Positions 1,496-61,558 of a stretch of DNA of 64,000 nucleotides are shown here, piece after piece. Below the pieces are notes generated by a model. The model had not been told where the DNA came from. It searched no databases and worked only from the letters and a program-made list of their open reading frames with translations. Made by a program: the position numbers and the translations under genes. The stretch's first letter is position 1, and every line of letters begins with the position of its first letter. Origin of the DNA: Nannocystis sp. SCPEA4 (lineage in GTDB: Bacteria > Myxococcota_A > Polyangia > Nannocystales > Nannocystaceae); assembly GCF_026626685.1 (NCBI RefSeq), contig NZ_JAPNJX010000021.1, forward strand, positions 41,329 to 105,328. The letters run 5' to 3'.

Positions 1496-1568
1496 CCCAC
1501 CGCCTCATCGGGCGTGGGGCAGCTCTGGACAACGCCGTCCGCCCGCCCCGGAGCAACCTCGACGCGAA

Positions 1569-1865
1569 GCACATCGTCGCGTCGCGAGCGAGCGCCGGAT
1601 ACGACGCCCAGAGGTCCGTCCGAGGGATGGCCGGCCCCGGCCGTCCCTCGGGCGGAATGCACCTGCGCGAAGAGACAGCTCCCAGCGAAGCCCGCGACCG
1701 GCGCTCGGGCCACCCACGAGTGGGCCGTGCCAGCGGTCGGGGATGCGGTCCTTCGACCATCCGCAGCGAGATGGGCCCGACGAAGGAGGGTCCATCCGCG
1801 AGGACTGGGCGGAGGACCGCATCCCCGACCGCACGCGAGGCGCATTCGGCAGTTCGCGAAGCACG
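1569..1865 (+). repeat. Copy A of a ~297 bp structured interspersed repeat element
   Basis: Near-identical to 6651-6950 (reverse orientation) and 61172-61466. Contains two strong hairpins: ccgagggatggccgg/ccggccgtccctcgg, and gtcggggatgcggtcc...ggaccgcatccccgac flanking ~65 bp. Confidence 0.8.
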
Positions 1866-2000
1866 AACATCAGGCCGCCGCGAACCACGACCAAGCCGCC
1901 GCGAATCACGAACAGCCCGCCGCGAACCCCGAACACCAGGCCGCCGCGAACCACGACCAAGCCGCCGCGAACCAAGCCACCGGCCCCAGCCGAGCCAGCC
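1866..2000 (+). repeat. Tandem ~21 bp repeat (caagccgccgcgaaccacgac) x about 5-6 abutting element copy A
   Basis: Direct reading: caggccgccgcgaaccacgaccaagccgccgcgaatcacgaacagcccgccgcgaacccc... The repeat is periodic. Confidence 0.7.
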
Positions 2001-2064: not shown

Positions 2065-3654
2065 ATGGCCGACACACTCGACCACTACCTCACCTGGCGC
2101 CTTTACCGTGCCGAACTCGACATCGAGCTCGACTTCGCCGACGCCCAGCTCGACGAGCCCTCGCTGACTGCCAACGCCTCGCGGCTCGAGGCTGCGCTCG
2201 ACGCTCTCCACCGGATCGAGGGCGGCGCCGTCGCCAACATCGACGAGGGGCGCATGGTCGGGCACTACTGGCTGCGCGACCCGGAGCGGGCGCCCGACCC
2301 CGAGATCGCCGTGGCGATCCACGCCAGCTGGCGGAACATCGAGGCCTTCGCGGCCGGCGTGCGCAGCGGCCAGATCGCCGGCGACGACGGGCGGCCGTTC
2401 ACCGGCGCGATCCTCGTCGGGATCGGCGGCAGCGCGCTCGGGCCGCAGCTGCTCGAGGCCGCGTTGACCCCGCGCGACAGCGGGCCCGGCTTCCGCCTGC
2501 GCGTGCTCGACAACACCGATCCCGCCGGCATCGCCGACCTGCTCGCAGAGACAGGTACTTTGGCGCAGACGCTGATCCTCGTCGTCTCCAAGTCGGGTTC
2601 GACCACCGAGACGCGCAACGGCATGCTCGAGCTGCGGGCCGCGTGTGCGCGCCAGGCGATCGAGTTCCCGAAGCGAGCCGTCGCCATCACCATGGAGGGC
2701 AGCCAGCTGGACGAGCTGGCGGCGCGCGAGGGCTGGCTGGCGCGCTTCCCGATGTGGGACTGGGTCGGCGGGCGCACCAGCGTCCTCTCGCCCGTCGGCC
2801 TGCTGCCGGCCGCGCTGCTCGGGCACGACTGGCGCGGCCTCTTGCGCGGGGCCGCGGCCATGGACCAGTGGGGCCGCGTGCGTCCGGCGCGGCGCAACCC
2901 GGCCGCGCTGCTGGCGTGGCTGTGGTACCAGCAGGGCCAGGGACATGGCCTTCGGGACATGGTCATTCTGCCATACAAAGATCGCCTGTCGCTGCTGTCG
3001 CGCTACCTGCAGCAGCTGGTGATGGAGTCGCTGGGCAAGCGGCTCGATCGCCAGGGGCGCGAGGTGTGGCAGGGCCTCGCGGTCTACGGCAACAAGGGCT
3101 CGACCGATCAGCACGCCTACGTGCAGCAGCTGCGCGACGGCCTTCACAACTTCTTCGCCGTGTTCGTGCGGGTGCTGCGCGACCTCGACGGTCAGGTCAC
3201 GGGTCCGGGCCAGGTCGAAGTCGAGCCGCGCGTGAGCTCGGGCGACTGCCTCGACGGCTTCTACCAGGGCACGCGCGCGGCGCTGGCCGAGCGCGGGCGC
3301 GCCAGCGCGACGCTCGTGCTGCGGGACGTCGACGCGGCCGCAGTGGGCGCCATGATCGCGCTGTTCGAACGCGCGGTCGGGATCTACGCCGAGCTGATCG
3401 ACGTCAACGCCTACCACCAGCCCGGCGTCGAGGCCGGCAAGCAGGCGGCGAAGGGCGTGCTGCAGCTGCAGGGCGCGGTGCTGTCGGCGCTGCCGGGCGG
3501 TCCTGGAGGCAAGACCTGTCGCGAGCTCGCGGAGGCGCTCGGCGCCGACCCCGTGGCCGTGTGGCAGGTCCTGCGCCACCTCGCCATCAACGGGCGCGTG
3601 AGCGTCGACAGCCTCGTCGATCCGGCGACTGCACAGTTCGCGCGCGCGCCCTGA
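2065..3654 (+). CDS. pgi: Glucose-6-phosphate isomerase
   Basis: 529 aa. PGI-family signatures present: ILVGIGGSALGP, LILVVSKSGSTTET, and C-terminal ...NAYHQPGVEAGK. ATG at 2065 is the first in-frame Met after the repeat element. Confidence 0.85.
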   Translation: MADTLDHYLTWRLYRAELDIELDFADAQLDEPSLTANASRLEAALDALHRIEGGAVANIDEGRMVGHYWLRDPERAPDPEIAVAIHASWRNIEAFAAGVRSGQIAGDDGRPFTGAILVGIGGSALGPQLLEAALTPRDSGPGFRLRVLDNTDPAGIADLLAETGTLAQTLILVVSKSGSTTETRNGMLELRAACARQAIEFPKRAVAITMEGSQLDELAAREGWLARFPMWDWVGGRTSVLSPVGLLPAALLGHDWRGLLRGAAAMDQWGRVRPARRNPAALLAWLWYQQGQGHGLRDMVILPYKDRLSLLSRYLQQLVMESLGKRLDRQGREVWQGLAVYGNKGSTDQHAYVQQLRDGLHNFFAVFVRVLRDLDGQVTGPGQVEVEPRVSSGDCLDGFYQGTRAALAERGRASATLVLRDVDAAAVGAMIALFERAVGIYAELIDVNAYHQPGVEAGKQAAKGVLQLQGAVLSALPGGPGGKTCRELAEALGADPVAVWQVLRHLAINGRVSVDSLVDPATAQFARAP

Positions 3655-5167: not shown

Positions 5168-6505
5168 TCAGTGGCACTGCAGCTCGCCGCGGGCCTGCGT
5201 CCAGTCGTGGCGCGCCAGCGCGTCGGCGGGGATCCAGAAGTAGAAGAAGCCGCCGTCCTGATTGAGCAGCAGGCCGTCCTGCTCGACGGCGTCGATCTGC
5301 AGCAGGAGCCGCCAGCGCAGTGACTGCTGCTGGATCTGCAGCGACTCCGCGGTGCCGTCCTCCCACCCCTCCCAGCCCTGCGGACGCGTGGCGATCTCGA
5401 TGTCGAGGTACGGGTCGCCCTGGATCGCCGCGGGGTGACCGAGCAGGCGGTGAAACGGACGCTCCGGCTCGTTGACCCGCTCGGCCCCGGCGATGAAGTA
5501 CGCGAGCGGCCCGGACGGGACGAGCTCCTCGCCGCTGCCCTGCCGACGCCCGCGGTGACAGGCGAGCACGCGCTCGAAGGGCAGCAGCGACTCGTAGAAG
5601 AAGTAGCTCTCGAGCGAGGGGAAGTGCACCTCGTCCTCGAGGTCGATCGCGTGAGCGCGCAACCTCTCGACCCCCGCGGGCACCGGACGCCGCGCGAGCT
5701 CGTCGAGGTCGGTGAAGTGCAGGACGCGGACGGGGTGGCCGCGGACGCCGTCAGGCGGGATCGGGGCGTAGAAGAAGCTCAGCAGGCCGTGCGCGGGCAG
5801 CTCGCCGGCGGCGGGCCGACCCGCGAGCTCGGCGAGGTCGAACTGGGCGACGAAGGTCAGCAGGACGCCGCCGTCCTCCGGCCACGCGAACGACGGCGGG
5901 AGGTCGGGGTCGCCGCCGAGGCGCGTCTGGCCGATCGGGCAGGTCGAATCGTCGTCCTCGTCGTCGGGGTCGAGGTGCAGCCGGAGCGCGGGACGAGCCA
6001 GCGCGCGCACCTCGGCGGCGTGTTCGGCGAGGCCGAGCGCCTCCAGCTCGTCGCGCCAGGCGGCTTCGCCGGCGGCCTCGTTCATGGCGGCCAAACGTTC
6101 GGGATCGCCGAGCGCAGCGGCGAATTCGTCGGCGTGCTGGAGCGCGTCGTCGGCGAGCAGGTCGGCGTAGGCGAACAGGTCGCAGGGCAACAGGGTGTCG
6201 GCGTCGTCGCCGTGGGCGGCGAGGATCGCCGGGATGGCGCGCAGGTTGCCCTCGAGGTAGGCCCGCAGGCGCGCCGGCGGGTGCTCGCGCTCGTCACCGA
6301 GGTAGACCTCCTGCTCCCGCACGTCGCGCGGGGTGTCGCTGTCGGGGGCATCGAAGTAGACGAGGGTGAGCGCGGCGCGGAGGTGGCCGTTCTCGTCGCG
6401 CCAGACCAGCTGGGGGTGGTCGGGGGCGAGCTGCAGGGCGATCGCGCCGGCGCGCTGGGGGAGGATGCGCTGGAACAGCTCGCGGAGGTCGTCTTGGGTG
6501 CTCAC
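5168..6505 (-). CDS. DUF1963 (YwqG-like) domain protein
   Basis: 445 aa. C-terminal block LGGDPDLPPSFAWP ... WRLLLQIDAVEQDG...GGFFYFWIPADAL matches DUF1963 conserved motifs. Confidence 0.55.
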   Translation of the reverse strand: MSTQDDLRELFQRILPQRAGAIALQLAPDHPQLVWRDENGHLRAALTLVYFDAPDSDTPRDVREQEVYLGDEREHPPARLRAYLEGNLRAIPAILAAHGDDADTLLPCDLFAYADLLADDALQHADEFAAALGDPERLAAMNEAAGEAAWRDELEALGLAEHAAEVRALARPALRLHLDPDDEDDDSTCPIGQTRLGGDPDLPPSFAWPEDGGVLLTFVAQFDLAELAGRPAAGELPAHGLLSFFYAPIPPDGVRGHPVRVLHFTDLDELARRPVPAGVERLRAHAIDLEDEVHFPSLESYFFYESLLPFERVLACHRGRRQGSGEELVPSGPLAYFIAGAERVNEPERPFHRLLGHPAAIQGDPYLDIEIATRPQGWEGWEDGTAESLQIQQQSLRWRLLLQIDAVEQDGLLLNQDGGFFYFWIPADALARHDWTQARGELQCH

Positions 6506-6650
6506 GCGGGGATTGTAGCGGCCGGCGGCGGGCTGCGCGAGCCTGTGCTTGTCGCTGGTGACGTCTGCTTATGGGGCGCTTGGGACATGTCCTTTTGAGC
6601 ATTGTCTTTTGGACATGACTGAATAGACAGTGTACTCGGCGGTGTGAGTG

Positions 6651-6950
6651 TCGTGCTTCGCGAACTGCCGAATGCGCCTCGCGGGCGGTCGGGGATGCGG
6701 TCCTCCGCCCAGTCCTCGCGGATGGACCCTCCTTCGTCGGGCCCATCTCGCTGCGGATGGTCGGAGGACCGCATCCCCGACCGCTGGCACGGCCCACTCG
6801 TGGGTGGCCCGAGCGCCGGTCGCGGGCTTCGCTGAGAGCTGTCTCTTCGAGCAGATTTATTCCGCCCGAGGGACGGCCGGGGCCGGCCATCCCTCGGACG
6901 GACCTCTGGGCGGAGTATCCGGCGCTCGCTCGTGACGCGACGATGTGCTG
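6651..6950 (-). repeat. Copy B of the ~297 bp structured interspersed element (inverted relative to copy A)
   Basis: The reverse complement aligns along its full length with 1569-1865 at more than 90 percent identity. Confidence 0.8.
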
Positions 6951-6952
6951 CG

Positions 6953-7145
6953 CGACAACCACGCGGTAACTCCGTCGCTCGCTCGTGACGCGACGATGAC
7001 TGCGAGACGACCGCGCTGCGACTCCGTCACTCGCTCCGCGACGACGTGCTGCACGACGACCATGCCGCGGCTCCGTCGCTCGCTCCGCGACGATCACTGC
7101 GCGACGACCACGCTGCGACTCCGTCGCTCGCTCCGCGACGATGAC
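6953..7145. repeat. Tandem ~42 bp repeat x about 4.5 abutting copy B
   Basis: Unit ...gcgacgaccacgctgcgactccgtcgctcgctccgcgacgatgactgc... The unit itself contains the terminal sequence of the element (cgctcgctcgtgacgcgacgatg). Confidence 0.75.
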
Positions 7146-7166
7146 TGCGAGACGACCGCGCCGGCG

Positions 7167-8159
7167 TCAGCGGCCGGTGAAGGCCGCCAACAGTTCGGCG
7201 GCGGCGTGGTCGGGGCTGAGGTGGCCGCTGCGGACGGCGGCTTCGAGCTCGGGGCGGCGGGCGAGCACGGCGGGGTCGGCGGCGAAGCGGCGCATCAGTT
7301 CGGCCTCGATGGCGCGCCACAGCCAGTAGACGTGCTGGGCCTCGCGCTGGGCCCGCCAGGCTGGACCTGACTGAAGGGCCAGGCGGTGACGCTCGACGGT
7401 CTGCCACAGCGCGGCGAGGCCGGCGCCCGTGACGGAGGAGGTGGTGACGACGGGCACGGACCAGCCGGGGTGCTTGGGGCGGATGAGGCGCATCGCCAGG
7501 GCGTACTCGGCGCGGGCGCGCTCGGCGGCGGCGGTGTTGTCGCCGTCGGCCTTGGTGATGGCGAGGATGTCGGCGAGCTCGAGGATCCCGCGCTTGATGC
7601 CCTGCAGCTCGTCGCCGGCGCCGGCGAGCATGAGGACGAGGAAGCAGTCGACGAGCTGGGCGACCATGACCTCGGACTGGCCGACGCCGACGGTCTCGAC
7701 GAGGACGACGTCGAAGCCGGCAGCCTCACACAAGAGCACGGTCTCGCGGGTGTGACGGGCGACGCCGCCGAGCTCGCCGAGCGAGGGCGAGGGTCGGATG
7801 AAGGCGCGAGGCTCGCGGGCCAGCTCCTGCATGCGCGTCTTGTCGCCGAGGATGCTGCCGCCGCTGCGCACGGAGCTGGGATCGACGGCCAGGACGGCGA
7901 CGCGACGGCCGAGGTCCCGCACGAGGTGGAGGCCGAGCGCCTCGATCAGCGTGCTCTTTCCAGCTCCGGGACTGCCGGTCACGCCGACGCGCAGCGAGCC
8001 GCCGGCGTCGGCCTGCAGCTCGGCCACCAGCTCACGCGCGAGCGCTTGATCGTCGGCGCGCTGGCTCTCGACCAATGTGATCGCCCGCGCCAGCACCGCT
8101 CGCTCGCCCGCCCTCACCCCCGCCGCGTACGCCTCGACGCTGAGCCGCCCCCGTGCCAT
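7167..8159 (-). CDS. meaB: Methylmalonyl-CoA mutase-associated GTPase MeaB/ArgK
   Basis: P-loop GVTGSPGAGKST, and VETVGVGQSE, ITKAD motifs typical of ArgK/MeaB G3E GTPases. Start chosen at MARGRL; the in-frame upstream extension is Arg-rich and unlikely to be coding. Confidence 0.8.
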   Translation of the reverse strand: MARGRLSVEAYAAGVRAGERAVLARAITLVESQRADDQALARELVAELQADAGGSLRVGVTGSPGAGKSTLIEALGLHLVRDLGRRVAVLAVDPSSVRSGGSILGDKTRMQELAREPRAFIRPSPSLGELGGVARHTRETVLLCEAAGFDVVLVETVGVGQSEVMVAQLVDCFLVLMLAGAGDELQGIKRGILELADILAITKADGDNTAAAERARAEYALAMRLIRPKHPGWSVPVVTTSSVTGAGLAALWQTVERHRLALQSGPAWRAQREAQHVYWLWRAIEAELMRRFAADPAVLARRPELEAAVRSGHLSPDHAAAELLAAFTGR

Positions 8160-8420
8160 CGCCGCCGCACCATACCCGCTGGCCGGTCGGCGCGACAAGC
8201 GGCGTGCCGCAAACATGTCTCTCGGGACCTGTCCCGTAGTGCCGAGACGCGGACGAGAGCGCATGCCGGACCGAAGAGCAACGCCGGCGCGGCAAAGAAC
8301 TGGCGAGGCTGCTCGAATGCCCGGTCGGGCGGTCAGAAAGCGCGACAGCCGACGCGGACGGCGCCGGCTCTCGCAAGGCGAAAGGCTCTATCAGGCTGCT
8401 CGGACGCGGCGGCTGGCGCG

Positions 8421-14100: not shown

Positions 14101-16258
14101 GCCCGGCCTCGGGCTCGCGCCGGTGCCGGTGCCGCTCGGCCCCGAGGGCGGGGACAGCCCGCTGGTCGCCCGCTTCGCCGCCCTCTACTCCAAGCCGCTG
14201 CCGTCGGTCACCATCGACCTGTCCGATCGGCCCAATACTTTCGGACATGCGCGTAACGACATGTCCTCCGCGCCAGCCGAGAGCGGGCCCGACATGCCCG
14301 GCTGGATCGCCGACTCCGAGGCCTCGGGCATCGAGGATCCGCTGCCGGTGGCGGACGCGCTGCGGACCGCGGGCCTGGCCGCCGGCGCCGAACGGGGCCT
14401 CGACCTCGATCCCGCCGCGACCTTGCCGGGCGCGCCGCGGGTCGTCCTCGACGAGGCCACGCGGGCCCGGGCCGCCGCGCCCGACCCCGAGTTCGACGCC
14501 TGGCCGCGCGCCGCCTCCGACACGCCGACGGTCCTCGACCTCTCGCCGCCGCCGGCCCACGAGCCGCCGATGGTGGAGACGCGCGCGACACCCGACGCCA
14601 AGACGGTCCTCGACATCCCGCCGCTCGATCCCACGGTCCCGCCGTCGACGCTGATCCCCAACCTGATCGCCCCGCCCGGCACCCCGGGCGCCGGCCGCCG
14701 CCGTCGCACGCCCGCGCCGGTCGAGGACGAGCCGGTGCTCGTGATCCCGAAGACCCTGCGGCGCCAGGGCGGGCTCACGGCCACCCCGCACCCGATGGCG
14801 CGCCGCAGCGATCCGAGCGGCGAGGACAGCACGGCCACGCTGTCGATACCGACCACGCTGATCGGCCCGCGCAGCGGTCGGCGCCGCGGCAAGCAGGAGC
14901 CGCGCTCCGAGGCCTCCTCGAGCGCGCTCAGCATGCCGCGGCTGGTGCGCGAGCCGGGGACGGACGACGCGTCCGATGATCCGGCCAGCGCCTCGACCTC
15001 CCGCGGGGCCATCCGGCATGCCCCCGACGACTCGGCCAGCGCCTCGACCTCCCGCGGCGCCACGCGGCATGGCCCCGACGACTCGGCCAGCGCCTCGACC
15101 TCCCGCGGCGCCATCCGCCGCGGCCCCGACGATTCGGCCGGCGCCTCGACCTCCCGCGGCGCCATCCGACTCGGCCCCGACGATCCGGCCAGCGCCTCGA
15201 CCTCTCGCGGCGCCATCAAACATGTCCTTGAGGACATGCCCGCCGCGACCGGTCCCGAGGAGCAGGTCGCCAAGGACAGCCCGACTCCGGCCCCCGCCCC
15301 CGCCGAGGACCTGGCTGCCGAGGAGCCCGAGGCGACCAGCGCCGACGCGGTCGCGCAGGCGGCCCTCAGCGACGACGAGATCGACGCGATCATCGAGGTC
15401 TTCCTGCAGAACCCGGCCGAGTGGACCAGCGTGTCGCGGCTGCGGGCGCTCGACCAGCGCGGCCTGGCCCGCCTGGCCGCGCGCTTCCCCGGACCGATCG
15501 ACCTGGCGAACGCGACCAACTTCCCGCCGCCGAGCGCCCACGGCCCGCTGCTGCGCGCCTGCGTCGAGCTCGGGCACGCGGTCAGCCCGCACATCCTGGC
15601 GCTGTTCGCCAGCGTGCGGCCGCAGATCCGCTTCTACGCCGCGTTCCTGTTCCAGGAGCTGCGCGACCCCCGGTGCCTGCGCCCGCTCGGCGAGCTCGCG
15701 TTCGACACCGACCCCGACGTGCGCCTGATCGCCACCCGCGTGCTCGAGTCGTACAGCCGCGTGCCCGACTTCGTCGCGGTCGCCGCCGAGATCCGCGAGG
15801 AGCTCGAAAGCCGCGACCGCGACCGCCAGCTGCTCGCGGTCGAGGCCGCCGGCACGCTACGCGACACCCTCGCCGTGCCGCGGCTGATCGACCTCCTGGC
15901 CGTGCGCGACAAGCACGTCCGCGAGGCCGCGCTCGAGGCCCTGTGCTCGATCACCGCCAAGCACCACGGCTACCGCGCCGCCCGCTGGCGCGCCTGGTAC
16001 GCCGAGCACGGCCACGAGCCGCGCATCGAGTGGGTCATCGACGGCCTGCGCCACCGCGACGAGGCCGTCCGCCGCTGGGCCGCCGACGAGCTGGCGCGGA
16101 TCACCGGCCAGCGGATCCCGTTCCCCGCCGAGGGCGACCGCCGCAGCCGCGACCTCGCCCTGCGCGCCTGGCAGGCCTGGTGGGACAGCAACCGCGAGGA
16201 CTTCACGCCGGCAGCCGAGGCCCGCCCCGGCGATGCACCGGCCGCCGGCGAGGACTGA
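11186..16258 (+). CDS. Giant (1690 aa) multidomain protein: GspE-N-like N-terminus, Pro/Ala/Ser low-complexity core, C-terminal HEAT repeats
   Basis: GTG start overlaps the RDD stop (GTGA). N-terminus LLRHLEANGPLSRADLEAASRRQQQAGGSLDTAILELGLMTPLALDAL resembles the T2SS-E N-terminal domain. The C-terminus carries multiple HEAT/PBS-lyase-like repeats (VRLIATRVLES..., HVREAALEALCSI..., EAVRRWAADELARI). Confidence 0.6.
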   Translation: MSLLLRHLEANGPLSRADLEAASRRQQQAGGSLDTAILELGLMTPLALDALLQSACGLPGAPVRLLERGPTRPWEHVPRDLVDIGWAMPLAAEEGRLIVAVHPDLPDAKLGQLYRLIRGFYPVVAPECCLAKVAVERTGAILAPRYALILLDYLEALRSTTPTVHLPASDAPLQDIPVPADRQNAGPRPAAMSGPAVAARASTTPVSSESSGASSPAAAPVASDRAETAHPSAAAAADATARAPEPTADNSGATPASADLAAPSASAPPASPSPVPSDSGAPDRSDSGLEPGPAAPRPTVAPDRSDSTAEAASVPSGSTAADPAAPARSHSSDAAAASEPVSSDSTREVAPPAAVASAAHDLGAPRSSAAQAEADRSAEPASGHQPVSEASTAAPSSPVLKDSPASEPSGAQPVTGESTTAASEPRPEPEAPARAVSVPSDRAEEAAPRAATSITDAPAPEPAPSRATGTAPMPIAAAVANRPPVGMEAVPVAPDAPLVAPRGFEGFGGSSLSGLAIAPDTPLIILPPEGAAPERTGPAKFAVRETAAWPAAARERPSQSPPFERPAVAPASDRPSPVSSDSLAPAPAAHGPSNGVAHPAAAAAAAPITPVPTASSRPADPAQDAPVSSASHGMVESSSRKPPPPPQPMVMTLAQRLDAARATLATARERDRITEALVRAASLVAPRVALFGVKREGLRVLAAPGSALQLAEGVVLALPEGGLLDRAVTGQGPLHLLAEPSLSSAVGQPLGIPCIFEPVLAGGRTVLMLYLDRAGVAFDPRERTVLRELCDTARQSLEALLRLLGWVVPGGTPGAGPADRSRPAVRPHLATPVVTVDETDAASTDDAEDSAPQVAAAAPAEPTPEAEEPEAPLPPAGGTIEPGFGDSASTSRSRGRGNNRGRAVITLKNPIRRDELSTVTPLPVRPESSAATRAPTLVLEDAPTDADADADESGGLDAAELEREEEEDRRDGPGLGLAPVPVPLGPEGGDSPLVARFAALYSKPLPSVTIDLSDRPNTFGHARNDMSSAPAESGPDMPGWIADSEASGIEDPLPVADALRTAGLAAGAERGLDLDPAATLPGAPRVVLDEATRARAAAPDPEFDAWPRAASDTPTVLDLSPPPAHEPPMVETRATPDAKTVLDIPPLDPTVPPSTLIPNLIAPPGTPGAGRRRRTPAPVEDEPVLVIPKTLRRQGGLTATPHPMARRSDPSGEDSTATLSIPTTLIGPRSGRRRGKQEPRSEASSSALSMPRLVREPGTDDASDDPASASTSRGAIRHAPDDSASASTSRGATRHGPDDSASASTSRGAIRRGPDDSAGASTSRGAIRLGPDDPASASTSRGAIKHVLEDMPAATGPEEQVAKDSPTPAPAPAEDLAAEEPEATSADAVAQAALSDDEIDAIIEVFLQNPAEWTSVSRLRALDQRGLARLAARFPGPIDLANATNFPPPSAHGPLLRACVELGHAVSPHILALFASVRPQIRFYAAFLFQELRDPRCLRPLGELAFDTDPDVRLIATRVLESYSRVPDFVAVAAEIREELESRDRDRQLLAVEAAGTLRDTLAVPRLIDLLAVRDKHVREAALEALCSITAKHHGYRAARWRAWYAEHGHEPRIEWVIDGLRHRDEAVRRWAADELARITGQRIPFPAEGDRRSRDLALRAWQAWWDSNREDFTPAAEARPGDAPAAGED
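14976..15235 (+). repeat. Tandem 60 bp (20 aa) repeat x about 5 inside the giant protein
   Basis: Encodes DDSASASTSRGAIRHGP-like units repeated five times. Confidence 0.7.
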
Positions 16259-21098: not shown

Positions 21099-22520
21099 CT
21101 ACTTCAGCGCGCCGCGATGGGCGTGCGGTTCCGGCGGAACGGGGGGCATCCCCGCCTGCGGAGCGACGCGGTACTCGTTGAGGCGGTACTGGATCTTGCG
21201 CGGCGAGATCCCGAGGATCTTGGCCGCCTTGCTGGTGCTGCCGCCGACGTGCTCGAGCGTCCGCAGGATGGCGTAGCGCTCGATCTCTCGCAGCGACGCG
21301 CCGGGGATGACCGGCGCGGAGTCGTCTCCGCGCATCTTCGACATCAGCTCGCGCGGCAGGTCGCGCGGCTCGACCTCGGTGCCGCGCGCGAGCACCACCG
21401 CCCGCTCGACGCTGTTCTCGAGCTGACGGATGTTGTCGGGCCAGTCGCAGCCGAGCAGCACGCCGAGCGCCCGCTCGCTGAAGCCGACCACCGGGCGGTG
21501 CGCCTGGGCGGCGAACTGGCGCAGGAAGTACATCGCCAGCAGCGGGATGTCGTCCCGGCGCTCGCGCAGCGACGGCATGCGCAGGCTGACGACGTTGAGG
21601 CGGTAATAGAGGTCCTCGCGCAGGCGGCCGTCCTGCTTCGCCGCGCCGATCTCGTGGCTCGTGGCCGCGATCACGCGCACGTCGGCGTGCAGTGGTTCGC
21701 TGTCGCCGACGCGACAGAACCCTCGCTCTTGCAGGAAGCGCAGCAGCGCGGCCTGGACCCCGTGCGGCAGCTCGTCGACGTCGGCGAGGAAGAGCGTGCC
21801 ACCGTCGGCCTCGCGCAGCCGACCCTCGCGCAGCACGGCGCCGCCGTCGCGCACGCCGAACAGCTCGCGCGCGCAGGCCTCGTCGGTGAAGCCGCTGCAC
21901 TGCAGGCTGACGAACGGGCCGCGTCGCCCGCTCCAATGATGGATGAGGCGCGCGAGGTGTTGCTTGCCGGTGCCGCGCTCGCCGGTGACGAGCACCGACA
22001 CCGGCGAGTCGGCGACCTGCCGCGCCAGGCCGAGGAGGTCGCGGAACACCTTCGACTGGCCGATCACGCCGGTGCGCTGGTCGGCGCGCTGACTCTCGAG
22101 CGCCGAGCGCAGATGCCTCGCCTCGCGCTGCAGCGCGCGGTGACGCAGGACCCGCTGCAACACGATCAGCAGCTGCGGAAGATCGACGGGCTTGCTCAGG
22201 TAATCGTCGGCGCCGAGATGGAGCGCCTCGACCGCGCCCTCGACCGAGCCAAAAGCGGTCATCACGACGACAGCGACGTCAGGGTAGATTTCACGGAGCT
22301 TGGATATGAGCTCCAGACCGTTGAGACCCGGCATCTTCACGTCGGTGATCACGACGTCCGGTTCCCACTGATCGACCCGTCCGAGCGCCTTGTAACCGTC
22401 GGCGGCGGACTGGACCTCATAACCTTCCTCTCGCAGCAACTCGCTCAACGCTGATCGAGCGCTCGACTCGTCATCGACCACCAAAATTCGGGTCGGCCTG
22501 GGCTCTTCAAAGTTCGTCAT
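21099..22520 (-). CDS. Sigma54-dependent response regulator (NtrC family)
   Basis: Receiver ILVVDDE...DVVITDVKMPGLNG. AAA+ sigma54-interaction domain with GERGTGKQHLA and the GAFTGA-equivalent. C-terminal Fis-type HTH. Confidence 0.85.
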   Translation of the reverse strand: MTNFEEPRPTRILVVDDESSARSALSELLREEGYEVQSAADGYKALGRVDQWEPDVVITDVKMPGLNGLELISKLREIYPDVAVVVMTAFGSVEGAVEALHLGADDYLSKPVDLPQLLIVLQRVLRHRALQREARHLRSALESQRADQRTGVIGQSKVFRDLLGLARQVADSPVSVLVTGERGTGKQHLARLIHHWSGRRGPFVSLQCSGFTDEACARELFGVRDGGAVLREGRLREADGGTLFLADVDELPHGVQAALLRFLQERGFCRVGDSEPLHADVRVIAATSHEIGAAKQDGRLREDLYYRLNVVSLRMPSLRERRDDIPLLAMYFLRQFAAQAHRPVVGFSERALGVLLGCDWPDNIRQLENSVERAVVLARGTEVEPRDLPRELMSKMRGDDSAPVIPGASLREIERYAILRTLEHVGGSTSKAAKILGISPRKIQYRLNEYRVAPQAGMPPVPPEPHAHRGALK

Positions 22521-22583
22521 AGGCGGTACCTCCGCGGGCTTCGCCTACTCTGCGGGCGGAAGATGCGCGGGTGTAATGCATAC

Positions 22584-24229: not shown

Positions 24230-24831
24230 GACTCTCCCTCCTCGGCGGCCGCCGGCGCGGCGACCTCTTCTTGCTTCTGCAGCTCCCAGGTGGCGAGCTC
24301 CACCTCGGCGTTGAGGCGGTCCTCGAGCGCCGACGGCGAGCGCAGCATCAGCCGCTCGACGAACAGGATGTTGCCCGGCTGCGCCTCGAGCTTGGCGAGG
24401 AAGTTCAGCAGCTCCTCGAGCGCGACGTTGCGGACCTCGAACGCGACCACGGTCTTGATCAGGCCCTTGTCGTCGACGGCGACCGGCGGGCGCACCTCTT
24501 CGCCGCGCAGCGTGCCGGTGACGAGGTCCTTCTGGGCCTCCTCGAGCAGGATGGAGAACACGATCGGCTGCGCGTTGGCGATCTTGGCCTCGCGCGCCTC
24601 CTTCTCCTTCTTCTTGGTGTCGTACGCGGTGCCCTTGGTGCGCACGAGCGCCAGGCCCTCGCGCAGCTCGGCGATCTCGGCGCGGGCGGTGTCGAACGAG
24701 CTCTTGCGCATCATGAACAGCACGCCGACCGCGGTGACGAAGAACACCAGCATCAGCACGCCGAGCAGCGCCCGCTCCCGCGGGTTGAAGCGGGACATGA
24801 ACCCGAACAGGGTGGAGTCGATGGCGCTCAC
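24226..24831 (-). CDS. gspM: Type II secretion system protein GspM
   Basis: ~200 aa bitopic protein (LLGVLMLVFFVTAVGVLFMM) placed between gspL and gspN. GTGA overlap with gspL. Confidence 0.55.
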   Translation of the reverse strand: MSAIDSTLFGFMSRFNPRERALLGVLMLVFFVTAVGVLFMMRKSSFDTARAEIAELREGLALVRTKGTAYDTKKKEKEAREAKIANAQPIVFSILLEEAQKDLVTGTLRGEEVRPPVAVDDKGLIKTVVAFEVRNVALEELLNFLAKLEAQPGNILFVERLMLRSPSALEDRLNAEVELATWELQKQEEVAAPAAAEEGES

Positions 24832-26591
24832 GAGTCGGCCTCCGTGCTGGCAAAGCAGTCGTGCTCGATGGTCGGGTCGAACACCTTCTTCATGCCCTCG
24901 TCGCGCACCTTGGCGGTGGGGAACGGGACGACGCAGGGCAGCGCCTGCAGCAGCTTGGTCTTGAACCGCTCCTGCGCCGACGAGCGCGTGGCCGAGGCCC
25001 GGAACTGGATCGCGCGCGGCCGGATCTCGATCAGCGACAGCACGAACTCGTCGTCCCACTGCAGGCCGGCCGTCGGATCGACCGAGGGCAGCTGGACGGT
25101 GGTCGGGCCCGCGGGCGTGGTGCCCGAGCCGTCGGACGACTCGGGGCTGCCGGTGCCCTCCTCGCCCATCACCGGCGCCGGCACCGGCGGCGGCTTCGCG
25201 CCGCTCGGCGTGGCCGCCTTGACGAACCCGGCCAACACGTCGAGCGCACCGCGGGCCGGGATGAGCTTGGTGATGTCGCGGCCGTCGACGGCGTTGAGGC
25301 GCTCCTCGATCTCGGCCTTGGAGGTGAGCGTCTCGCCGAACACCTTGTTGCTGGCCACGCCGAGCTCTTCCTCGTAGGCGAGGCGCTCCGCCTCGAGGGC
25401 GCTCATGCCGACCACGGTGTCGACGACGCCGAACGCGAGGATGGCGAAGCCGAGCGCGGCGACGGTGGCGATCCGCTCGGCGATCCAGCTGCCGTCGCTG
25501 CCGCGCTGCACCGCGGCGTCCTTGTGCAGCTGGATCAGCGGCCGGCGAGCGCAGCCGACCGCGCCGCCGAGCGCGGCGCACGTGGCCGTCCAGTCATGTC
25601 CCGCAAGACCTTTCAGCCCGAGACTCTCGCGTGGGCGGGCGCGCTCGGTCGGCAGCCCGAGCTGCTCGGCGAGGTAGGCGTCGAGGCCGCGCAGGTTGGC
25701 CCCGCCGCCCGACAGGCGCAGCTGCACGACCTCGCTGCCGAACTCGGCGCGCAGCCACATGCGCGTGTGCTCGATCTCCCGCACCACCGGCTCGAGCGCG
25801 CGGGCCACGAGCGTCGCCGACTCGAGCTGCTCGGCGCTGAGGTCGCCCTGGCCGCGGTGGGGCAGGAACGCGTTGGCCCGCTTGGCCGCCTCGGCGTCGG
25901 CGTCGCTGAGCTGGTAGCGCTGCTGCAGCGCGCGCGTGACGTGCACGCCGCCGCGGCGGAGCATGCGGGCCGCGACCGGGCCCTTGGACCCGAACGCGAC
26001 CAGGTCGGTCGTCGCGTGGCCGATGTCGAGGCCGAGGACCACCGGCGTGCGAGCGTCGGCGGGCGCGCCCTTGGCCGGCTCGGGCAGGTCGGCGGTGAGC
26101 ACCTGCGCGGTCGCCAGCACGTCGACGGTGATGAGCTTGAGGTCGATCGTCGCCGCCTTGAACGCGGCCTGCACCTGGTCGATGGCCGAGCGACGCACCG
26201 CGACGGCGAGCGCCTGACCGCCGCCACCCGCGGCCGTCGCGGGCACGTGGTCGAGCTCGAGGTTCTCGAGCGGGACCGGGAACTGGCCCTCGGCCTCGAA
26301 CGCGATCGCCTGGGCGATCCGGCGCGGGTCGTTGAACGGGAACTTGAACACGCGATAGGCGGCGAAGCTGCCCGGCAGCACCACGCCGATCGGGTAGTGG
26401 TTCCAGCCGCGGCGGCGCAGCACGCTGATGCCGATGTCGAGCGCGGCGGCCAGCGAGGTGTCGCCCTGCGGCGCGAGCGTGACCGGCTCGACGACCACAT
26501 CGAGCACCTGGATGGTGCGCAGGCCGGCGTTGATGAGCACGGCCTTGACTTCGGAGGTGCCGAGGTCGAGTCCTACGTACTTCTGAGCCAC
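24828..26591 (-). CDS. gspL: Type II secretion system protein GspL (PilM/actin-like N-domain)
   Basis: MAQKYVGLDLGTSEVKAVL actin-like ATPase fold start. Central TM segment. Operon position after gspK. Confidence 0.6.
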   Translation of the reverse strand: MAQKYVGLDLGTSEVKAVLINAGLRTIQVLDVVVEPVTLAPQGDTSLAAALDIGISVLRRRGWNHYPIGVVLPGSFAAYRVFKFPFNDPRRIAQAIAFEAEGQFPVPLENLELDHVPATAAGGGGQALAVAVRRSAIDQVQAAFKAATIDLKLITVDVLATAQVLTADLPEPAKGAPADARTPVVLGLDIGHATTDLVAFGSKGPVAARMLRRGGVHVTRALQQRYQLSDADAEAAKRANAFLPHRGQGDLSAEQLESATLVARALEPVVREIEHTRMWLRAEFGSEVVQLRLSGGGANLRGLDAYLAEQLGLPTERARPRESLGLKGLAGHDWTATCAALGGAVGCARRPLIQLHKDAAVQRGSDGSWIAERIATVAALGFAILAFGVVDTVVGMSALEAERLAYEEELGVASNKVFGETLTSKAEIEERLNAVDGRDITKLIPARGALDVLAGFVKAATPSGAKPPPVPAPVMGEEGTGSPESSDGSGTTPAGPTTVQLPSVDPTAGLQWDDEFVLSLIEIRPRAIQFRASATRSSAQERFKTKLLQALPCVVPFPTAKVRDEGMKKVFDPTIEHDCFASTEADS

Positions 26592-26631
26592 GGGCTGCTG
26601 TCCTTGCGGTTGAAGATGGGAGCCATGGAGG

Positions 26632-28002
26632 TCAGTCCTCGCGGAGGTAGAGCCACGCGCCGGTGCCCTTGGTGCCCTCGCTGCGGACGAATTGCATGTC
26701 GTAGATGGAGGTGACCCGCTTCTTCACGGCGCCGACCTCGGCGATGATCTCGATGCGATAGACCCGCTCGGGCGCGATGGTGGCGATGTCGCTGAGGCCG
26801 CCGAGCTGCTCGCCCGAGCTCTTGTCCTCTTCGCTGTTCTCGCGGATCATCATGCCCTCGGGGATCCGCGGCAGGTTGGCCCGGTTGAGCGCCTGCGCGG
26901 CCGAGCCGCCGCCGCCGAGCGCGGCCAGCGGGTTCATGAACTTGTCGGGCTTCTCGACGAACTCCTTGAACGCCTTCATGTCGGCGAACAGGCTCATGGT
27001 CCGCGAGTCGACGATGTAGCGGGCCAGCGGCAGCGTCTTGATCAGGAAGTTCTCGCCCTCGGTCTTCCACTTGTCCTCGGCGGTGACCGAGTGGCGCAGC
27101 ACGAGCGCGATCTGGTCGGCGCTGGCGAAGTTGAGGTTGACCTTGCAGCCGCCGTAGACGGTGAGGTCGGCGGCGATCGCCGTCATCAGGTCGTCGTCGA
27201 CGCCCTGGACCAGGTGCAGCTCCTCGATGCTGTCGAGCCGGGCGTTGCGCGGCTGGTACGGGTCGAAGATCTCGGTGTAGCGGTAGCGCTCCTGCGTCGA
27301 CGACGACGCCAGCTTGACCATGTCCCACGACTTGATGTCCTCGTCGATGTAGTCGACGATCGCCTGGATGACGCTGGCCCGGGTGTAGCGCTGACCGTCG
27401 CTCTTCTCCTCGTCGAACAGCGGGTCGTAGAGCGTCGGCATCAGCATCGCCTCGAGCGTCTCGACGGTGCGCGCCTGCGAGTTGTCCTTGCCCTGCCCCG
27501 CCTGCGCCAGGCAGTTGACGTTGAGCTTGCCGCTCTCGGCCTCGACGCGGATCTCGAAGCCGCCGTGCTCGATGGCGAGGTCCTTGAAGGTCGAGTTGTC
27601 GAGGCCGACCAGCCCGGCGATGCCCTCGTGGCCGTCCTTCGAGCCGAACGCCGACATCAGGTACGGCGCGACCTGGGTGATGTCCCAGGTGCCGAGCATC
27701 TGCCGGAACTGCTTCTGGTTGAACACCATGCGCTGCAGCTCGAACAGCAGCAGCGACAGGCGCATCCCGCCGCGGGTCAGGTTGCGCGCCGAGATCTCGT
27801 CGCGCAGGTTGATCGCGGCCTGCCAGTCGACGCGCGTGGTGTAGCTGAACGCGGCCGTGAACGGCAGCAGCACGGCGATGCAGGCCAGGACCATCAGCAG
27901 GGCGATGCCGTGCTCCTTGCCGCCGGCGCGGCGCCGGCCCGCGCCGGACCTGGCCTTACGGACATGTCGCTCGGGCGGGGTATGTGCGGAGGACGCGGTC
28001 AT
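26632..28002 (-). CDS. gspK: Type II secretion system minor pseudopilin GspK
   Basis: N-terminal hydrophobic segment GIALLMVLACIAVLL, ~450 aa, operon position. Confidence 0.6.
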   Translation of the reverse strand: MTASSAHTPPERHVRKARSGAGRRRAGGKEHGIALLMVLACIAVLLPFTAAFSYTTRVDWQAAINLRDEISARNLTRGGMRLSLLLFELQRMVFNQKQFRQMLGTWDITQVAPYLMSAFGSKDGHEGIAGLVGLDNSTFKDLAIEHGGFEIRVEAESGKLNVNCLAQAGQGKDNSQARTVETLEAMLMPTLYDPLFDEEKSDGQRYTRASVIQAIVDYIDEDIKSWDMVKLASSSTQERYRYTEIFDPYQPRNARLDSIEELHLVQGVDDDLMTAIAADLTVYGGCKVNLNFASADQIALVLRHSVTAEDKWKTEGENFLIKTLPLARYIVDSRTMSLFADMKAFKEFVEKPDKFMNPLAALGGGGSAAQALNRANLPRIPEGMMIRENSEEDKSSGEQLGGLSDIATIAPERVYRIEIIAEVGAVKKRVTSIYDMQFVRSEGTKGTGAWLYLRED

Positions 28003-28011
28003 GGCGAAAAC

Positions 28012-28737
28012 TCAGCGGGAGAAGTCGATGCGCTCCTGCAGCGGGATGAGGGCCTGGGTGACGTACTTGACCTCCTTGCCGAGGTCCGGGTCCCACACGC
28101 CCAGCGTGATCTTGACCCGCTCCGGCAGGCGGTTCGGCTGCATGTCCTGCTTCATCGTGCGCCACTCGTCGCGCCACTCGATGCGCTTGTTGTCCCAGTA
28201 CTTGACGTCGAACGACTTGATGTCCTCGCAGAACACGTAGGCCGGGAAGAACTCTTCGAGCTTCTCCGGCAGGTCGCCCATCAGCCGCCGCGCCTCGCGC
28301 TTGTACAGGTGGGTGCGCGTGCCGTCGTTCGGGTCCTTGAACAGGAAGTACTGGATGACCGACTGGTCGCTCTCGTTGGCGTCCTTGCGCATGCGGATGT
28401 GGGCGAACGCCGAGAACGTGAGGCTGTCGGAGTAGAACAGGTCGCGGCCCTCGAACAGCGTGTAGTGCTTCTCGTCCCCGGCCGGGCGGTTGTGCGACAG
28501 GTAGGCCATCGACAGCTCGGCGCCCATGCGCGCCAGGCAGTTGCGCAGCACCGCGTACTTCTGCTGCACCTTCTCGGCGTGGCGCATGCTGGTCGCGGTG
28601 GTGCTGAAGCTGGCGTAGACCGAGGCGATCATCATCGTGATCATGGTGACCGCGACGAGGATCTCGATCAGCGACATGCCGCGCTGGCTGGCTGCCCGCC
28701 GGGACATGGTCGAAGGGACATGGCGGATGGGACTCAT
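28012..28737 (-). CDS. gspJ: Type II secretion pseudopilin (GspJ-like)
   Basis: Prepilin-type N-terminus RGMSLIEILVAVTMITMM. Confidence 0.6.
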   Translation of the reverse strand: MSPIRHVPSTMSRRAASQRGMSLIEILVAVTMITMMIASVYASFSTTATSMRHAEKVQQKYAVLRNCLARMGAELSMAYLSHNRPAGDEKHYTLFEGRDLFYSDSLTFSAFAHIRMRKDANESDQSVIQYFLFKDPNDGTRTHLYKREARRLMGDLPEKLEEFFPAYVFCEDIKSFDVKYWDNKRIEWRDEWRTMKQDMQPNRLPERVKITLGVWDPDLGKEVKYVTQALIPLQERIDFSR

Positions 28738-29507
28738 CGCTTCATCCCTCCCATCTGCATGCTCGACCCCGGGCCCGTGCCGCCGGCCGCCGGCTGACGC
28801 CCCCCACCGGCGCCGCCCGTCGGCTTGCCCGCGCCCGCGCCCGCACCCGCCCCCTGCCCCTGCCCCTGCTCGTCGCCCATGTCGCCCTCCTTGGCCTCGC
28901 CGCCGAGGCCGGGCAGCTGCTTGAGCTTCTCGGGGTCGGCCCAGAAGGTGTTGACGATGAACTCCTCGTCGAGGTTGCCGTTCTTCCACTTGACCGTGCA
29001 CTTGACCTTGCGGATCGAGCGCTCGATCGCCTGCTTGACCGGCGTCCACACCATGCCGAGGGCGGTGAACGCCTGATCGCCGGCGCTCTTGTAGTACATG
29101 CTGCTCTCGCCGCGCTTGGACCGGTCGCTCTCGTCCTTGGCCGCGCGCAGCTCGGTGTACTCGGGCAGCTTGAGGAAGTCGACGATGCACTTGTACTTGA
29201 CGTCGGGCCAGCCCTGGTCGGCGAAGCTGCCCTCGTAGAACTTGTCCTCGAGCACCCAGCCGCCCTCCTTGCGGACGATGTACTCGGTCTCGATCAGCTG
29301 GTAGTCGGCCAGGAACGCCACCGAGGTGATCGTCTGCGCGTAGCGGGTGGCGCGGAGGCTGGCCATCTGCGACGTCAGCATCGACGTCAGCGACAGCGCC
29401 AGCACGGCCATCGCGATCATGACCTCGAGCAGGGTGAAGCCGGCGGCGGCGTAGCGCTGCTCGGGCGGCCGCAGCCGGGTCGGACGGGGGGAGCTCGGCG
29501 CGGTCAT
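28734..29507 (-). CDS. gspI: Type II secretion pseudopilin (GspI-like) with Gly/Gln-rich tail
   Basis: Prepilin N-terminus AGFTLLEVMIAMAVLAL. Confidence 0.6.
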   Translation of the reverse strand: MTAPSSPRPTRLRPPEQRYAAAGFTLLEVMIAMAVLALSLTSMLTSQMASLRATRYAQTITSVAFLADYQLIETEYIVRKEGGWVLEDKFYEGSFADQGWPDVKYKCIVDFLKLPEYTELRAAKDESDRSKRGESSMYYKSAGDQAFTALGMVWTPVKQAIERSIRKVKCTVKWKNGNLDEEFIVNTFWADPEKLKQLPGLGGEAKEGDMGDEQGQGQGAGAGAGAGKPTGGAGGGRQPAAGGTGPGSSMQMGGMKR

Positions 29508-29508
29508 G

Positions 29509-30522
29509 TCAGAACGCCCTCCGGTTCATCTTCTTGCCGAGGTCGTCGCGGATCGACGTCGGGTCCTCCGGCAGCGCGAGGTCGACGTGGCCGTCCTTCA
29601 CCTCGACGCGGCCGGTCAGCGGCTTGACGATGATGGTGAACTCGTTCTCCGGATTGGCGACCTCCTGCACGTGGATGTGCGCCAGCTGGGTGTGGCCCTG
29701 CGGGAAGAAGTACAGGCTCGCCTCGCCCTTGGTGATCGGCTTGAGGTCCTCGGCCGTGCGCACCGCGATCACCTTGACCTCGGCCGGGAACTTGAACGGC
29801 TTCTTGAGCTCCGACAGGCTGTTGTCGTCGTCGAAGGCGCCGAAGATCGGCGGCTTGCGCCGCGGGACCTTCTTCGGCGGGGTGATGTACTTGTCGGGCT
29901 GCGTCGTCGTCGACGGCGGCGTGGTGCCCGGCTTGGCCGCGCCGGCCGGCTGCCCCGGCGCGCCCGGCGTGGTGCCGCTCTTGGCCGGCTGCCCCGGCTG
30001 CCCCGGCTGTCCCGGAGTACCTGTCCCAGGAGTCACGCTCGCCATCGGCTGCCCGAGCGGGCCCATGGTCTGGCCCGGCTTGCCGACCGGCGCGCCCTTG
30101 ACCGCGTCGAGCACCCGCGCCTGCAGCGAGCGGTTGTAGTTCTCCTCGGCCCGCTTGTCGCGCTCCTCTTTCTCCTTCACCTTGCCCGGGTCGATGACGA
30201 CGATCCGGCCGTAGCGATCGGTGGCCGGCAGGTACATGCGATCGTCGCCGCGCTGCAGGGTGAAGCTGTTCTTGTCGATGTCGATGAGGAGCCGGTAGTA
30301 GGTGCCGGTGACGCGCGCCTTGTTGTAGGCGAAGCGGATCGTGTTGGCGAGCTGGTTGGTGACGCGGGCCACCTGCGCCTGCTTGCCGGCGCCGAGGCCG
30401 GTGAGCACCGAGCCGATGAGCAGCGCGAGGATCCCCATGATCACGAGGACCTCGATCAACGTGAAGCCGAGGCTCCCTCGCCGAGCGCGCGCCGCTGTGT
30501 GTCGGAACCCCATCGCCATCAC
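29509..30522 (-). CDS. gspH: Type II secretion pseudopilin (GspH-like) with long Pro/Gly/Thr-rich insert
   Basis: Prepilin N-terminus LGFTLIEVLVIMGILALL. Insert PGTGTPGQPGQPGQPAKSGTTPGAPGQP. Confidence 0.6.
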   Translation of the reverse strand: MMAMGFRHTAARARRGSLGFTLIEVLVIMGILALLIGSVLTGLGAGKQAQVARVTNQLANTIRFAYNKARVTGTYYRLLIDIDKNSFTLQRGDDRMYLPATDRYGRIVVIDPGKVKEKEERDKRAEENYNRSLQARVLDAVKGAPVGKPGQTMGPLGQPMASVTPGTGTPGQPGQPGQPAKSGTTPGAPGQPAGAAKPGTTPPSTTTQPDKYITPPKKVPRRKPPIFGAFDDDNSLSELKKPFKFPAEVKVIAVRTAEDLKPITKGEASLYFFPQGHTQLAHIHVQEVANPENEFTIIVKPLTGRVEVKDGHVDLALPEDPTSIRDDLGKKMNRRAF

Positions 30523-30561
30523 GATCCTTCTTGCGGAGAAACGACCGGGCCTAGCGCCCGA

Positions 30562-31011
30562 TCACTTCTTCTCCTCCTTGGCCGCCTCGATGTCCTTCGG
30601 GTCCTCCCAGCTGTTGACGTCGTCGCCGCCGGAGGGCTTCTTGTCGGGGCCGTTGGAGGTGACGTCGACCGGGCCGTGCTGACCGGGGCAGACGATGACG
30701 TACTCCTCGCCCCACGGGTCCTTCTTGACGCGCGCCGTGACGCCGGCGGCCTTGAGGTCCGCCATGCTCTTCGGGCACTTGTCGTTCTTCTGCAGCATGT
30801 ACTGCTCGCTGAGCTTCTGGATCTCGACCACCTCGTTGTAGGCGACCTTGACCTTCGAGTCCGAGAGCGCGTTGAAGGCGACGACGCTGACGCCGCCGAC
30901 GATGAGGCCGATGATCGCCAGCACGACGAGGATCTCGATCAGCGTCATGCCGCGGCTGCGGCGGCGGCGGCGGACGGCCTGGCGGACGGTGTGAAGTTGC
31001 GGGTTCATGGG
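30562..31011 (-). CDS. gspG: Type II secretion major pseudopilin GspG
   Basis: RGMTLIEILVVLAIIGLIVGG prepilin leader plus conserved GspG core (DPWGEEYV). Confidence 0.8.
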   Translation of the reverse strand, partial: PMNPQLHTVRQAVRRRRRSRGMTLIEILVVLAIIGLIVGGVSVVAFNALSDSKVKVAYNEVVEIQKLSEQYMLQKNDKCPKSMADLKAAGVTARVKKDPWGEEYVIVCPGQHGPVDVTSNGPDKKPSGGDDVNSWEDPKDIEAAKEEKK

Positions 31012-31034
31012 TGGTCTCTCCTGAGGTACTCGGG

Positions 31035-32276: not shown

Positions 32277-32282
32277 GCTCTG

Positions 32283-34151
<1,869 letters not shown>

Positions 34152-37655: not shown

Positions 37656-39068
<1,413 letters not shown>

Positions 39069-60562: not shown

Positions 60563-61171
60563 CCCAAGATGCCAGAGCGGCGCTCCGCGATCAAGAATCC
60601 ATCGCGCTGGCGGGTGCGGCGCGAGTGATGCGTGCCGCGACCTGTCGCCGGCCATGTGGGCCCGCGTCGCCGGTGTAAGAAGGCCCTGTTCGCCGGCAAC
60701 GATGACGCTTCATCGCCGGACTGTGCTTCCACCTCGTGGGCCTGGCCGGCGAGCAAGACGCTTCGCAGCTCGCGGTGCCTGCCCGGCGCGAACCACTTTG
60801 CTGACGACGGCCGCGGTGCCGAGCCGGCGGGCACCGCTCAGCGAAGTGCGGTGCACGAATCGCGGCGAAATGCCTCCATGATCGGCGTGTCGTGGTAAGG
60901 GCCGAGGTAACAAGGACAGCTGTCCGCGACGCCTCGCCGCGCGACGGACCGGAGCGCCGCAATGTGAGGGCGACCGGAAGTGATGACGGTGCAACGTCGC
61001 CGCAAGCATCGGCACCGCGCCGGCCCTCCGGGCGGACCCGCCCTGTCGCATCTTGCGACACAGCACCCCGCGGCAACCGGCACCGAGCGGAGCAGCCTCC
61101 GCCTGGCAGTCCGCGTCGGCGAGGCATCGCCGCGCGACCGACAGCCGGCACTCCGACCGCCCGCATCGCGC

Positions 61172-61466
61172 GGCACATCGTCGCCTCACGATCGAGCGCC
61201 GGCTACGACGTCCAGAGGTCCGTCCGAGGATGGCCGGCCCCGGCCGTCCCTCGGGCGGAATGCACCTGCGCGAAGAGACAGCCTGCAACGGAGCCCGCGA
61301 CCGGCGCTCGGGCCACCCACGAGTGGGCCGTGCCAGCGGTCGGGGATGCGGTCCTCCGACCATCCGCAGCGAGATGGGCCCGACGAAGGAGGGTCCATCC
61401 GCGAGGACTGGGCGGAGGACCGCATCCCCGACCGCTCGCGAGGCACATTCGGCAGTTCGCGAAGCA
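61172..61466 (+). repeat. Copy C of the ~297 bp structured interspersed element
   Basis: Aligns along its full length with 1569-1865. Confidence 0.8.
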
Positions 61467-61558
61467 GAACTCGGCGCTCCTCGCACATTCTTCAGGACAT
61501 GCCCGAAGCAGCATGTCCCATCAGACATGCCCAAAGCCGCATGCTCTCAGGACCAGCC

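Follow-up and report, generated by a model that had tools for sequence, protein, structure and literature searches.

Retrons are anti-phage systems that also serve as tools for genome editing, and their RNA template is assumed to lie adjacent to the gene of the reverse transcriptase (RT) that copies it. To our knowledge, dispersed and enzyme-less copies of such templates (msr/msd) have been reported only once, in 1997 and from the genus Nannocystis, and that report was never revisited with genomes. Sequences are very different between retrons, and a retron RNA is defined by rules of layout: outer ends that hybridize, one to three msr hairpins, usually of 3-10 bp, and one long msd hairpin (PMC7736814). 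The repeats of N. exedens (Retron-Nex1/Ne160) are described as hairpin-rich, msr/msd-like sequences without an RT, present in several copies and with parts of the msr side duplicated (Lampson and Rice, 1997, as relayed in PMC6868368). Among the myxobacterial retrons, those of type XIII (Mx162, Sa163, Mx65, Ne144) have RNAs of ~300 nt that run from a closing stem through short 5' hairpins to a long 3' hairpin. The genuine type XIII RNAs lie ~40-80 nt upstream of the RT gene, near WD40/HEAT accessory genes.

A repeated element with a similar layout occurs in Nannocystis sp. SCPEA4. The window, by which we mean the whole 64-kb stretch of DNA that was analysed, holds three copies of ~300 nt that are 87-99% identical in a MAFFT multiple alignment. 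Each was delimited by MAFFT, a repeat finder and a profile:

1562..1866, + strand: copy 1, core element (~305 nt)
6651..6955, - strand: copy 2, core element
61166..61469, + strand: copy 3, core element, with a 1-nt deletion in hairpin 1

The similarity among the three begins and ends abruptly, both in the alignment and in the repeat finder, which pairs the copies over 323 nt at 94% identity (I1), 239 nt at 97% (D2) and 239 nt at 95% (I2). Within the 64-kb window, the profile derived from the copies matches these three sites only (E = 1e-100 to 4e-102). Codon-position GC and Pfam matches place all three between genes. Copy 1 is flanked by a UDPGP gene (371-1495, +) and a PGI gene (2065-3654, +), while copy 2 lies between a MeaB gene (7167-8264, -) and a DUF1963 gene (5168-6505, -) in the orientation of both. 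Copy 3 sits within a spacer of ~1 kb, antisense to both of its minus-strand neighbours (59597-~60480 and 61559-62977), 54 kb from copy 2 and 59.6 kb from copy 1. Copies 1 and 2 are the two arms of a 323-nt inverted repeat (1563-1885 / 6632-6954) around a 4.7-kb segment with the PGI, MatE and DUF1963 genes, the order of which bears no sign of inversion. The window as a whole has a GC content of 71.5% and ~96% identity to N. radixulma, and the PGI protein that it encodes matches that of Nannocystis sp. SCPEA4 at 100% identity. Apart from the copies, it is ordinary chromosome with a type II secretion cluster, sigma-54 activators and metabolic genes.

The initial annotation had described three intergenic copies in both orientations, each with two strong inverted repeats and strong structure, and in all these respects the description held. 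The first repeat, CCGAGGGATGGCCGG/CCGGCCGTCCCTCGG, is found at 1620/1637, and its first arm contains the 1-nt deletion of copy 3. The second, GTCGGGGATGCGGTCC/GGACCGCATCCCCGAC, is found at 1736/1814, encloses 62 nt and is merely the core of a hairpin of 132 nt. Single copies fold with energies of -191 to -204 kcal/mol, at a z of about -10 against shuffled sequence (copy 1: -204 kcal/mol, z = -10; copy 2: -198.5 kcal/mol, z = -9.9). A consensus fold was obtained with RNAalifold from six copies, three of SCPEA4 and three of N. radixulma, and its parts are given here in the coordinates of copy 1:

1562..1570, + strand: 5' arm of the closing stem P1, consensus UCGCGCAGC, pairing with 1852-1859 (RNAalifold, alignment)
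1852..1859, + strand: 3' arm of P1, GUUCGCGA (RNAalifold)
1574..1706, + strand: 5' domain (folds, RNAalifold consensus)
1574-1587, + strand: 4-bp hairpin of the 5' domain
1590-1598 paired with 1698-1706, + strand: stem P2, 9 bp, invariant
1614-1660, + strand: 20-bp hairpin inside P2, alongside two small hairpins
1717..1848, + strand: long 3' hairpin, 132 nt, about 54 base pairs (folds, repeat finder, RNAalifold consensus)
6669-6800, - strand, and 61320-61451, + strand: counterparts of the long 3' hairpin in copies 2 and 3 (repeat finder I5, I8, I10)

From 5' to 3', therefore, the element consists of a closing stem, a 5' domain of short hairpins and a near-perfect 3' hairpin of 132 nt. P1 comprises 8 bp with one bulge, each pair of which is intact in four to six of the six copies. 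Its 5' arm ends in AGC in five of the six copies and in GGC in copy 3 of SCPEA4, a motif that is too short to be specific. The long hairpin is nearly palindromic and folds on either strand, and the difference in folding energy between the plus and minus strands is inconsistent among the copies, as it is in genuine retrons.

Set against the retron rules, the hairpins come in the proper layout, with the 4-bp hairpin, the 20-bp hairpin and the two small ones followed by the hairpin of about 54 bp, although the 20-bp hairpin on the msr side exceeds the usual 3-10 bp (PMC7736814). In bulk properties, the element resembles type XIII, namely in length, GC content, folding energy and order of parts. 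For a direct comparison, loci of the Mx162 family were fetched with an approximate RT probe, which is 98% identical to a real M. xanthus protein. Four genuine retron RNAs from Myxococcus, Sorangium and Archangium (L027-L030) were located within ~400 nt of the enzyme gene, on its upstream side, and used for a profile and a covariance model. The Mx162 RNA of M. xanthus has 299 nt and folds at -194.8 kcal/mol (z = -12), very similar in plan, size and stability to the element with its 304 nt, -198 to -204 kcal/mol and z = -10. In Mx162, the branching G stands in UCAGCC at the end of a2, and the AGC of the element is found at the same place, at the end of the 5' arm. The closing stem differs, with about 34 bp in Mx162 as opposed to 8 bp with a bulge in the element, and neither the RT gene nor the WD40/HEAT genes that accompany genuine type XIII RNAs are present at the element. 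Moreover, the nhmmer profile of the four RNAs does not match the element, nor does their msr covariance model at E <= 10, which scores its own members at 91-98 bits. Since retron RNA types share no sequence, this excludes membership in the Mx162 subfamily but not a retron origin.

The neighbourhoods of the four reference retrons are themselves of two kinds. In three (L027, L028 and L030), a protein of ~620 aa and a WD40/HEAT protein of ~2200 aa are encoded upstream of the retron, and in the fourth (L029), genes for a Tox-REase-5 toxin and an Imm52 immunity protein are found there instead.

A second comparison, with the N. exedens repeats, is one of description only. Like Retron-Nex1/Ne160, as far as that system is portrayed in the secondary account, the element belongs to the genus Nannocystis, is multi-copy and msr/msd-like and has no RT nearby. 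Parts of the msr side are duplicated there, and the 5' module is tandemly duplicated here. The candidate template block spans about 165-171 nt, against 160 nt for the msDNA reported from N. exedens. The two organisms are distant, with the PGI of N. exedens only ~65% identical to that encoded in the window.

Taken together, the layout of a retron appears to be present in the element, while a link to retrons is suggested and not proven. The reading that we favour most, at a probability of roughly 35%, is that each copy is a retron-type msr-msd non-coding RNA module of the N. exedens kind, without an RT of its own. The order of parts on the folded plus strand agrees with the retron order of a2, branching G, msr hairpins, msd hairpin and a1. 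The copies would then descend from a retron. A retron RT encoded elsewhere in the genome, if it recognises the copies, would prime at the G of AGC and copy about 165 nt, corresponding to the following block, into multicopy single-stranded DNA:

1689..1859, + strand: uniform 3' block, 171 nt, with zero fixed differences between copies

The uniformity of this block would mirror either selection on the template hairpin or homogenization between copies. The neighbourhood of the copies offers no enzyme for such a process. No RT gene lies directly downstream on the same strand at any copy: on the 3' side, copy 1 is followed by PGI and copy 2 by DUF1963, and copy 3 points towards the end of a convergently oriented gene. 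Neither an RT nor a transposase or integrase is encoded within the 64-kb window, in which no RT-like open reading frame with YxDD and no RVT_1 match was detected. A closing stem and hairpins are also a common plan among RNAs, which could arise without any retron ancestry.

A more far-reaching version, which we regard as improbable, would make the copies live 'orphan' templates: a distant RT copies the ~165-nt block, and the resulting single-stranded DNA serves as a recombination donor that keeps exactly this block identical. If true, it would amount to natural trans-acting retron templates and to concerted evolution driven by a retron. Even the plainer retron reading, should it be correct, would provide exact coordinates at which to test whether a retron enzyme works on distant templates, whether retron products are re-inserted into the chromosome and why the template block is uniform. 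If the element is unrelated to retrons, it is a small, young and lineage-restricted family of highly structured non-coding repeats, of local interest only.

The pattern of sequence change within the element speaks for the retron reading and also for a different explanation, akin to the multi-copy structured RNA gene of the initial annotation, in which the function resides in the RNA fold itself, a protein-binding or regulatory RNA being one example. The three copies would then be a lineage-specific family of genes for structured small RNAs, or else RNA elements that form part of read-through transcripts, and no retron would lie in their past. Variation in the long hairpin affects 3 of 108 paired columns as opposed to 6 of 24 unpaired ones (Fisher p = 0.001), a contrast that is partly circular because the structure was predicted from the same sequences. 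Of the three changes at paired columns, two are from C to U opposite a G and keep a wobble pair on the plus strand. Between SCPEA4 and N. radixulma, the core differs by 1.3-3.3%. Divergence is 3.6-6.6% at third codon positions in neighbouring genes and 7-15% in the flanking tails and repeats; the core evolves more slowly than third codon positions. The differences between copies are not spread evenly along the element. The 5' block (127 nt) has 10-14 differences fixed between copies (87-97% identity), whereas the 3' block has none and is 96.5-98.8% identical between copies, which implies either stronger selection or homogenization between them.

These observations, along with the very stable folds and the lack of homology to Mx162-type retron RNAs, are what a small-RNA family would lead one to expect. 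Other expected traits are missing. Consensus scans found no promoter-like or terminator-like sites around any copy and no T-run after the hairpins, and the alignment contains no conserved sequence upstream of the copies that could be a shared promoter. No covariation is seen in the six-copy alignment either, since the copies, all more than 87% identical, are too similar to one another. The Rfam scan proposed in the initial annotation was carried out and gave no gathering-level match in the window (Rfam 15); at the level of E-values, the three copies matched only generic hairpins (miRNA precursors) below the threshold, and a tRNA/tmRNA scan of the window found none. While the silence of Rfam counts against a small-RNA family, it is no evidence against a retron origin, because the genuine Mx162-type RNAs (L027 2660-2960, L028, L029 and L030) do not match any Rfam 15 family at gathering level. 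Finally, the element is absent from close relatives, so that any function as a small RNA would have to be very young. On balance, we consider this explanation possible, if doubtful.

That absence was established in two ways. First, the genomes of bacteria and archaea, one for each species, were scanned for a 20-mer taken from the long hairpin, a search that may miss diverged copies. It recovered the element in N. radixulma only, with three copies at sites syntenic with those of SCPEA4 (L001 corresponding to copies 1 and 2, L002 to copy 3). Second, the orthologous loci of relatives were reached through their PGI homologues, and the spacer between UDPGP and PGI was without the element in every relative fetched, namely those with PGI identities of 91% (L032), 85% (L033), 79% (L013-L015) and 76% (L016). 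In L032 the empty spacer has a length of 121 nt, in L013 one of 92 nt. In the latter, MatE adjoins MeaB and the DUF1963 gene is missing, from which it follows that the DUF1963 gene and copy 2 are both additions; they may have arrived together. The absence from relatives and the identical sites in both strains indicate a recent gain that is now fixed: the gain falls between two splits, that from the L032 lineage and the later one of SCPEA4 and N. radixulma, and the element has not moved since.

The other ten loci of the 20-mer scan were rejected as chance matches within coding sequence, four of which (L007, L008, L010 and L011) fall in a gene common to several deltaproteobacterial genomes. Metagenome contigs contained no related element when searched with one 21-mer from the 3' end, which happens to coincide with a coding motif; the eight matches obtained (L019-L026) were rejected as a conserved coding motif that translates as CRMCLV, presumably that of an Fe-S protein. 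Exact-word scans with GC-rich probes thus call for caution, as the patterns of the element recur by chance in conserved coding motifs. Four scans of viral contigs and blastn searches of plasmids and phages gave no match.

The initial annotation had also proposed a MITE/REP-like mobile element, and of this proposal the insertion itself stood up, being lineage-specific with the corresponding spacer empty in relatives, while the assignment to these classes did not. MITEs and the relics of non-autonomous transposons are likewise small and devoid of genes, lie between genes in either orientation and are missing from the corresponding site in relatives. The element departs from MITEs in having no target-site duplication, a weak terminal repeat of 8 bp and a copy number of three, and in lacking insertion polymorphism between the two strains. 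Both REP units (20-40 nt) and REPINs (about 100 nt) are numerous, with copies in the tens to hundreds, and have an associated RAYT transposase. The element shares with them the character of a GC-rich intergenic hairpin that can fold on either strand, but it is a multi-domain unit of 300 nt in three copies.

The edges of the element and their surroundings are as follows:

1874..1974, + strand: 21-nt tandem repeat (GCCGCCGCGAACCACGACCAA, 4.7 units), directly 3' of copy 1 (repeat finder D5)
6936..7161, - strand: 48-nt tandem array (4.6 units), 5' of copy 2 (repeat finder D8, D17, profile)
6560..6650, - strand: 3' tail after copy 2, low in GC (50%), in which GACATGYCC motifs recur; homologous to its counterpart at copy 3
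61470..61558, + strand: 3' tail after copy 3, low in GC (60%), in which GACATGYCC occurs three times

A search for target-site duplications, which had been suggested for a mobile element, came out negative, in that the flanks of the three copies contain no direct repeat; the GCGMRGCAC words common to both ends are part of the element. The only terminal inverted repeat is the imperfect 8-bp pair UCGCGCAGC/GUUCGCGA. On the left, the element passes gradually into tandem repeats of its own 5' module, each unit of the 48-nt array being a copy of it. In N. radixulma, this module (~48-52 nt) is amplified beside copies 1 and 3 (L001 860-912; L002 1241-1970), and copy 3 has ~560 extra bases upstream, in which a partial 5' module lies among degenerate repeats of ~120 nt. 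These module-bearing flanks evolve much faster than the core. The GCCGCCGCGAACCACGACCAA array has fewer units in N. radixulma and is therefore unstable. In the tails of copies 2 and 3, the GACATGYCC motifs are spaced about 14-25 nt apart; copy 1 is without such a tail, and the one shared by the other two could be a protein-binding site or the remnant of a longer ancestral unit. With three fixed copies (by the one 20-mer scan), no target-site duplication and fuzzy 5' edges, the element is not a typical MITE or REP.

This does not dispose of mobile DNA of a less typical kind. A non-autonomous, hairpin-ended element that leaves no target-site duplication, such as an IS200/IS605-type derivative or another single-strand transposon relic, could have been moved by a transposase encoded elsewhere and be immobile now. 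Three unrelated intergenic sites in both orientations, a spacer that is empty in relatives, hairpins near both ends and the absence of an internal gene are all in keeping with such a history, and the lack of target-site duplications is what the IS200/IS605 class would predict. We nevertheless find it unlikely: in N. radixulma, the 20-mer scan found three copies only, all syntenic between the strains, the window is without a transposase, the left boundary is not sharp but runs into tandem 5' modules, the two end hairpins are unlike each other, and plasmid, phage and viral collections contain no related element.

The same surroundings raise the question of whether the copies are passive duplicates at the level of DNA. 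An intergenic hairpin cassette, acting as a terminator, mRNA stabilizer or insulator, would have been spread by recombination and kept alike by gene conversion. Copies 1 and 2 do separate co-directional genes, a position at which a terminator or stabilizer would have its effect, the near-palindrome folds on either strand, unstable tandem repeats flank the copies, and the 3' block is uniform between them. However, a conserved multi-domain structure of 300 nt far exceeds what a terminator needs, the hairpins are not followed by a T-run, copy 3 stands 54 kb from copy 2 in an unrelated context, and relatives do without the cassette at the same spacer. Its chances appear slim to us.

Least credible of all is an origin of the copies as pieces of a duplicated protein-coding gene. 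In copy 1, none of the six frames is interrupted, which at 72% GC is what chance predicts. No frame has a homologue: the concatenated six-frame translation, which might also have caught frames mis-called over related elements elsewhere, found none among 5.8 billion proteins, in agreement with the initial annotation, which had seen no gene inside the element. In addition, copy 3 carries the 1-nt indel, which shifts the frame, stops occur in several frames of copies 2 and 3, and there is no codon-position GC signal across the spacer of copy 3. On the absence of a homologue, the frameshift and the stops, this reading was ruled out.

Several features of the window lie apart from the element. The type II secretion/pilus-like cluster (24828-36630, -) encodes a PilM-like protein, GspK, pseudopilins, GspF, GspE and a secretin, and genes for sigma-54 activators flank it at 21099-22544 and 37656-39233. 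In this region, at 28278-28375, the Mx162 msr covariance model has a weak match of 19.7 bits (rough E = 0.004) that is probably due to chance. Two large genes contain in-frame tandem repeats, at window positions 14922-15246 and 46881-47640: one set has 51-nt units within an open reading frame for a HEAT-repeat protein of 1969 aa, and the other has 171-nt units within a gene for a beta-propeller (SBBP) protein.
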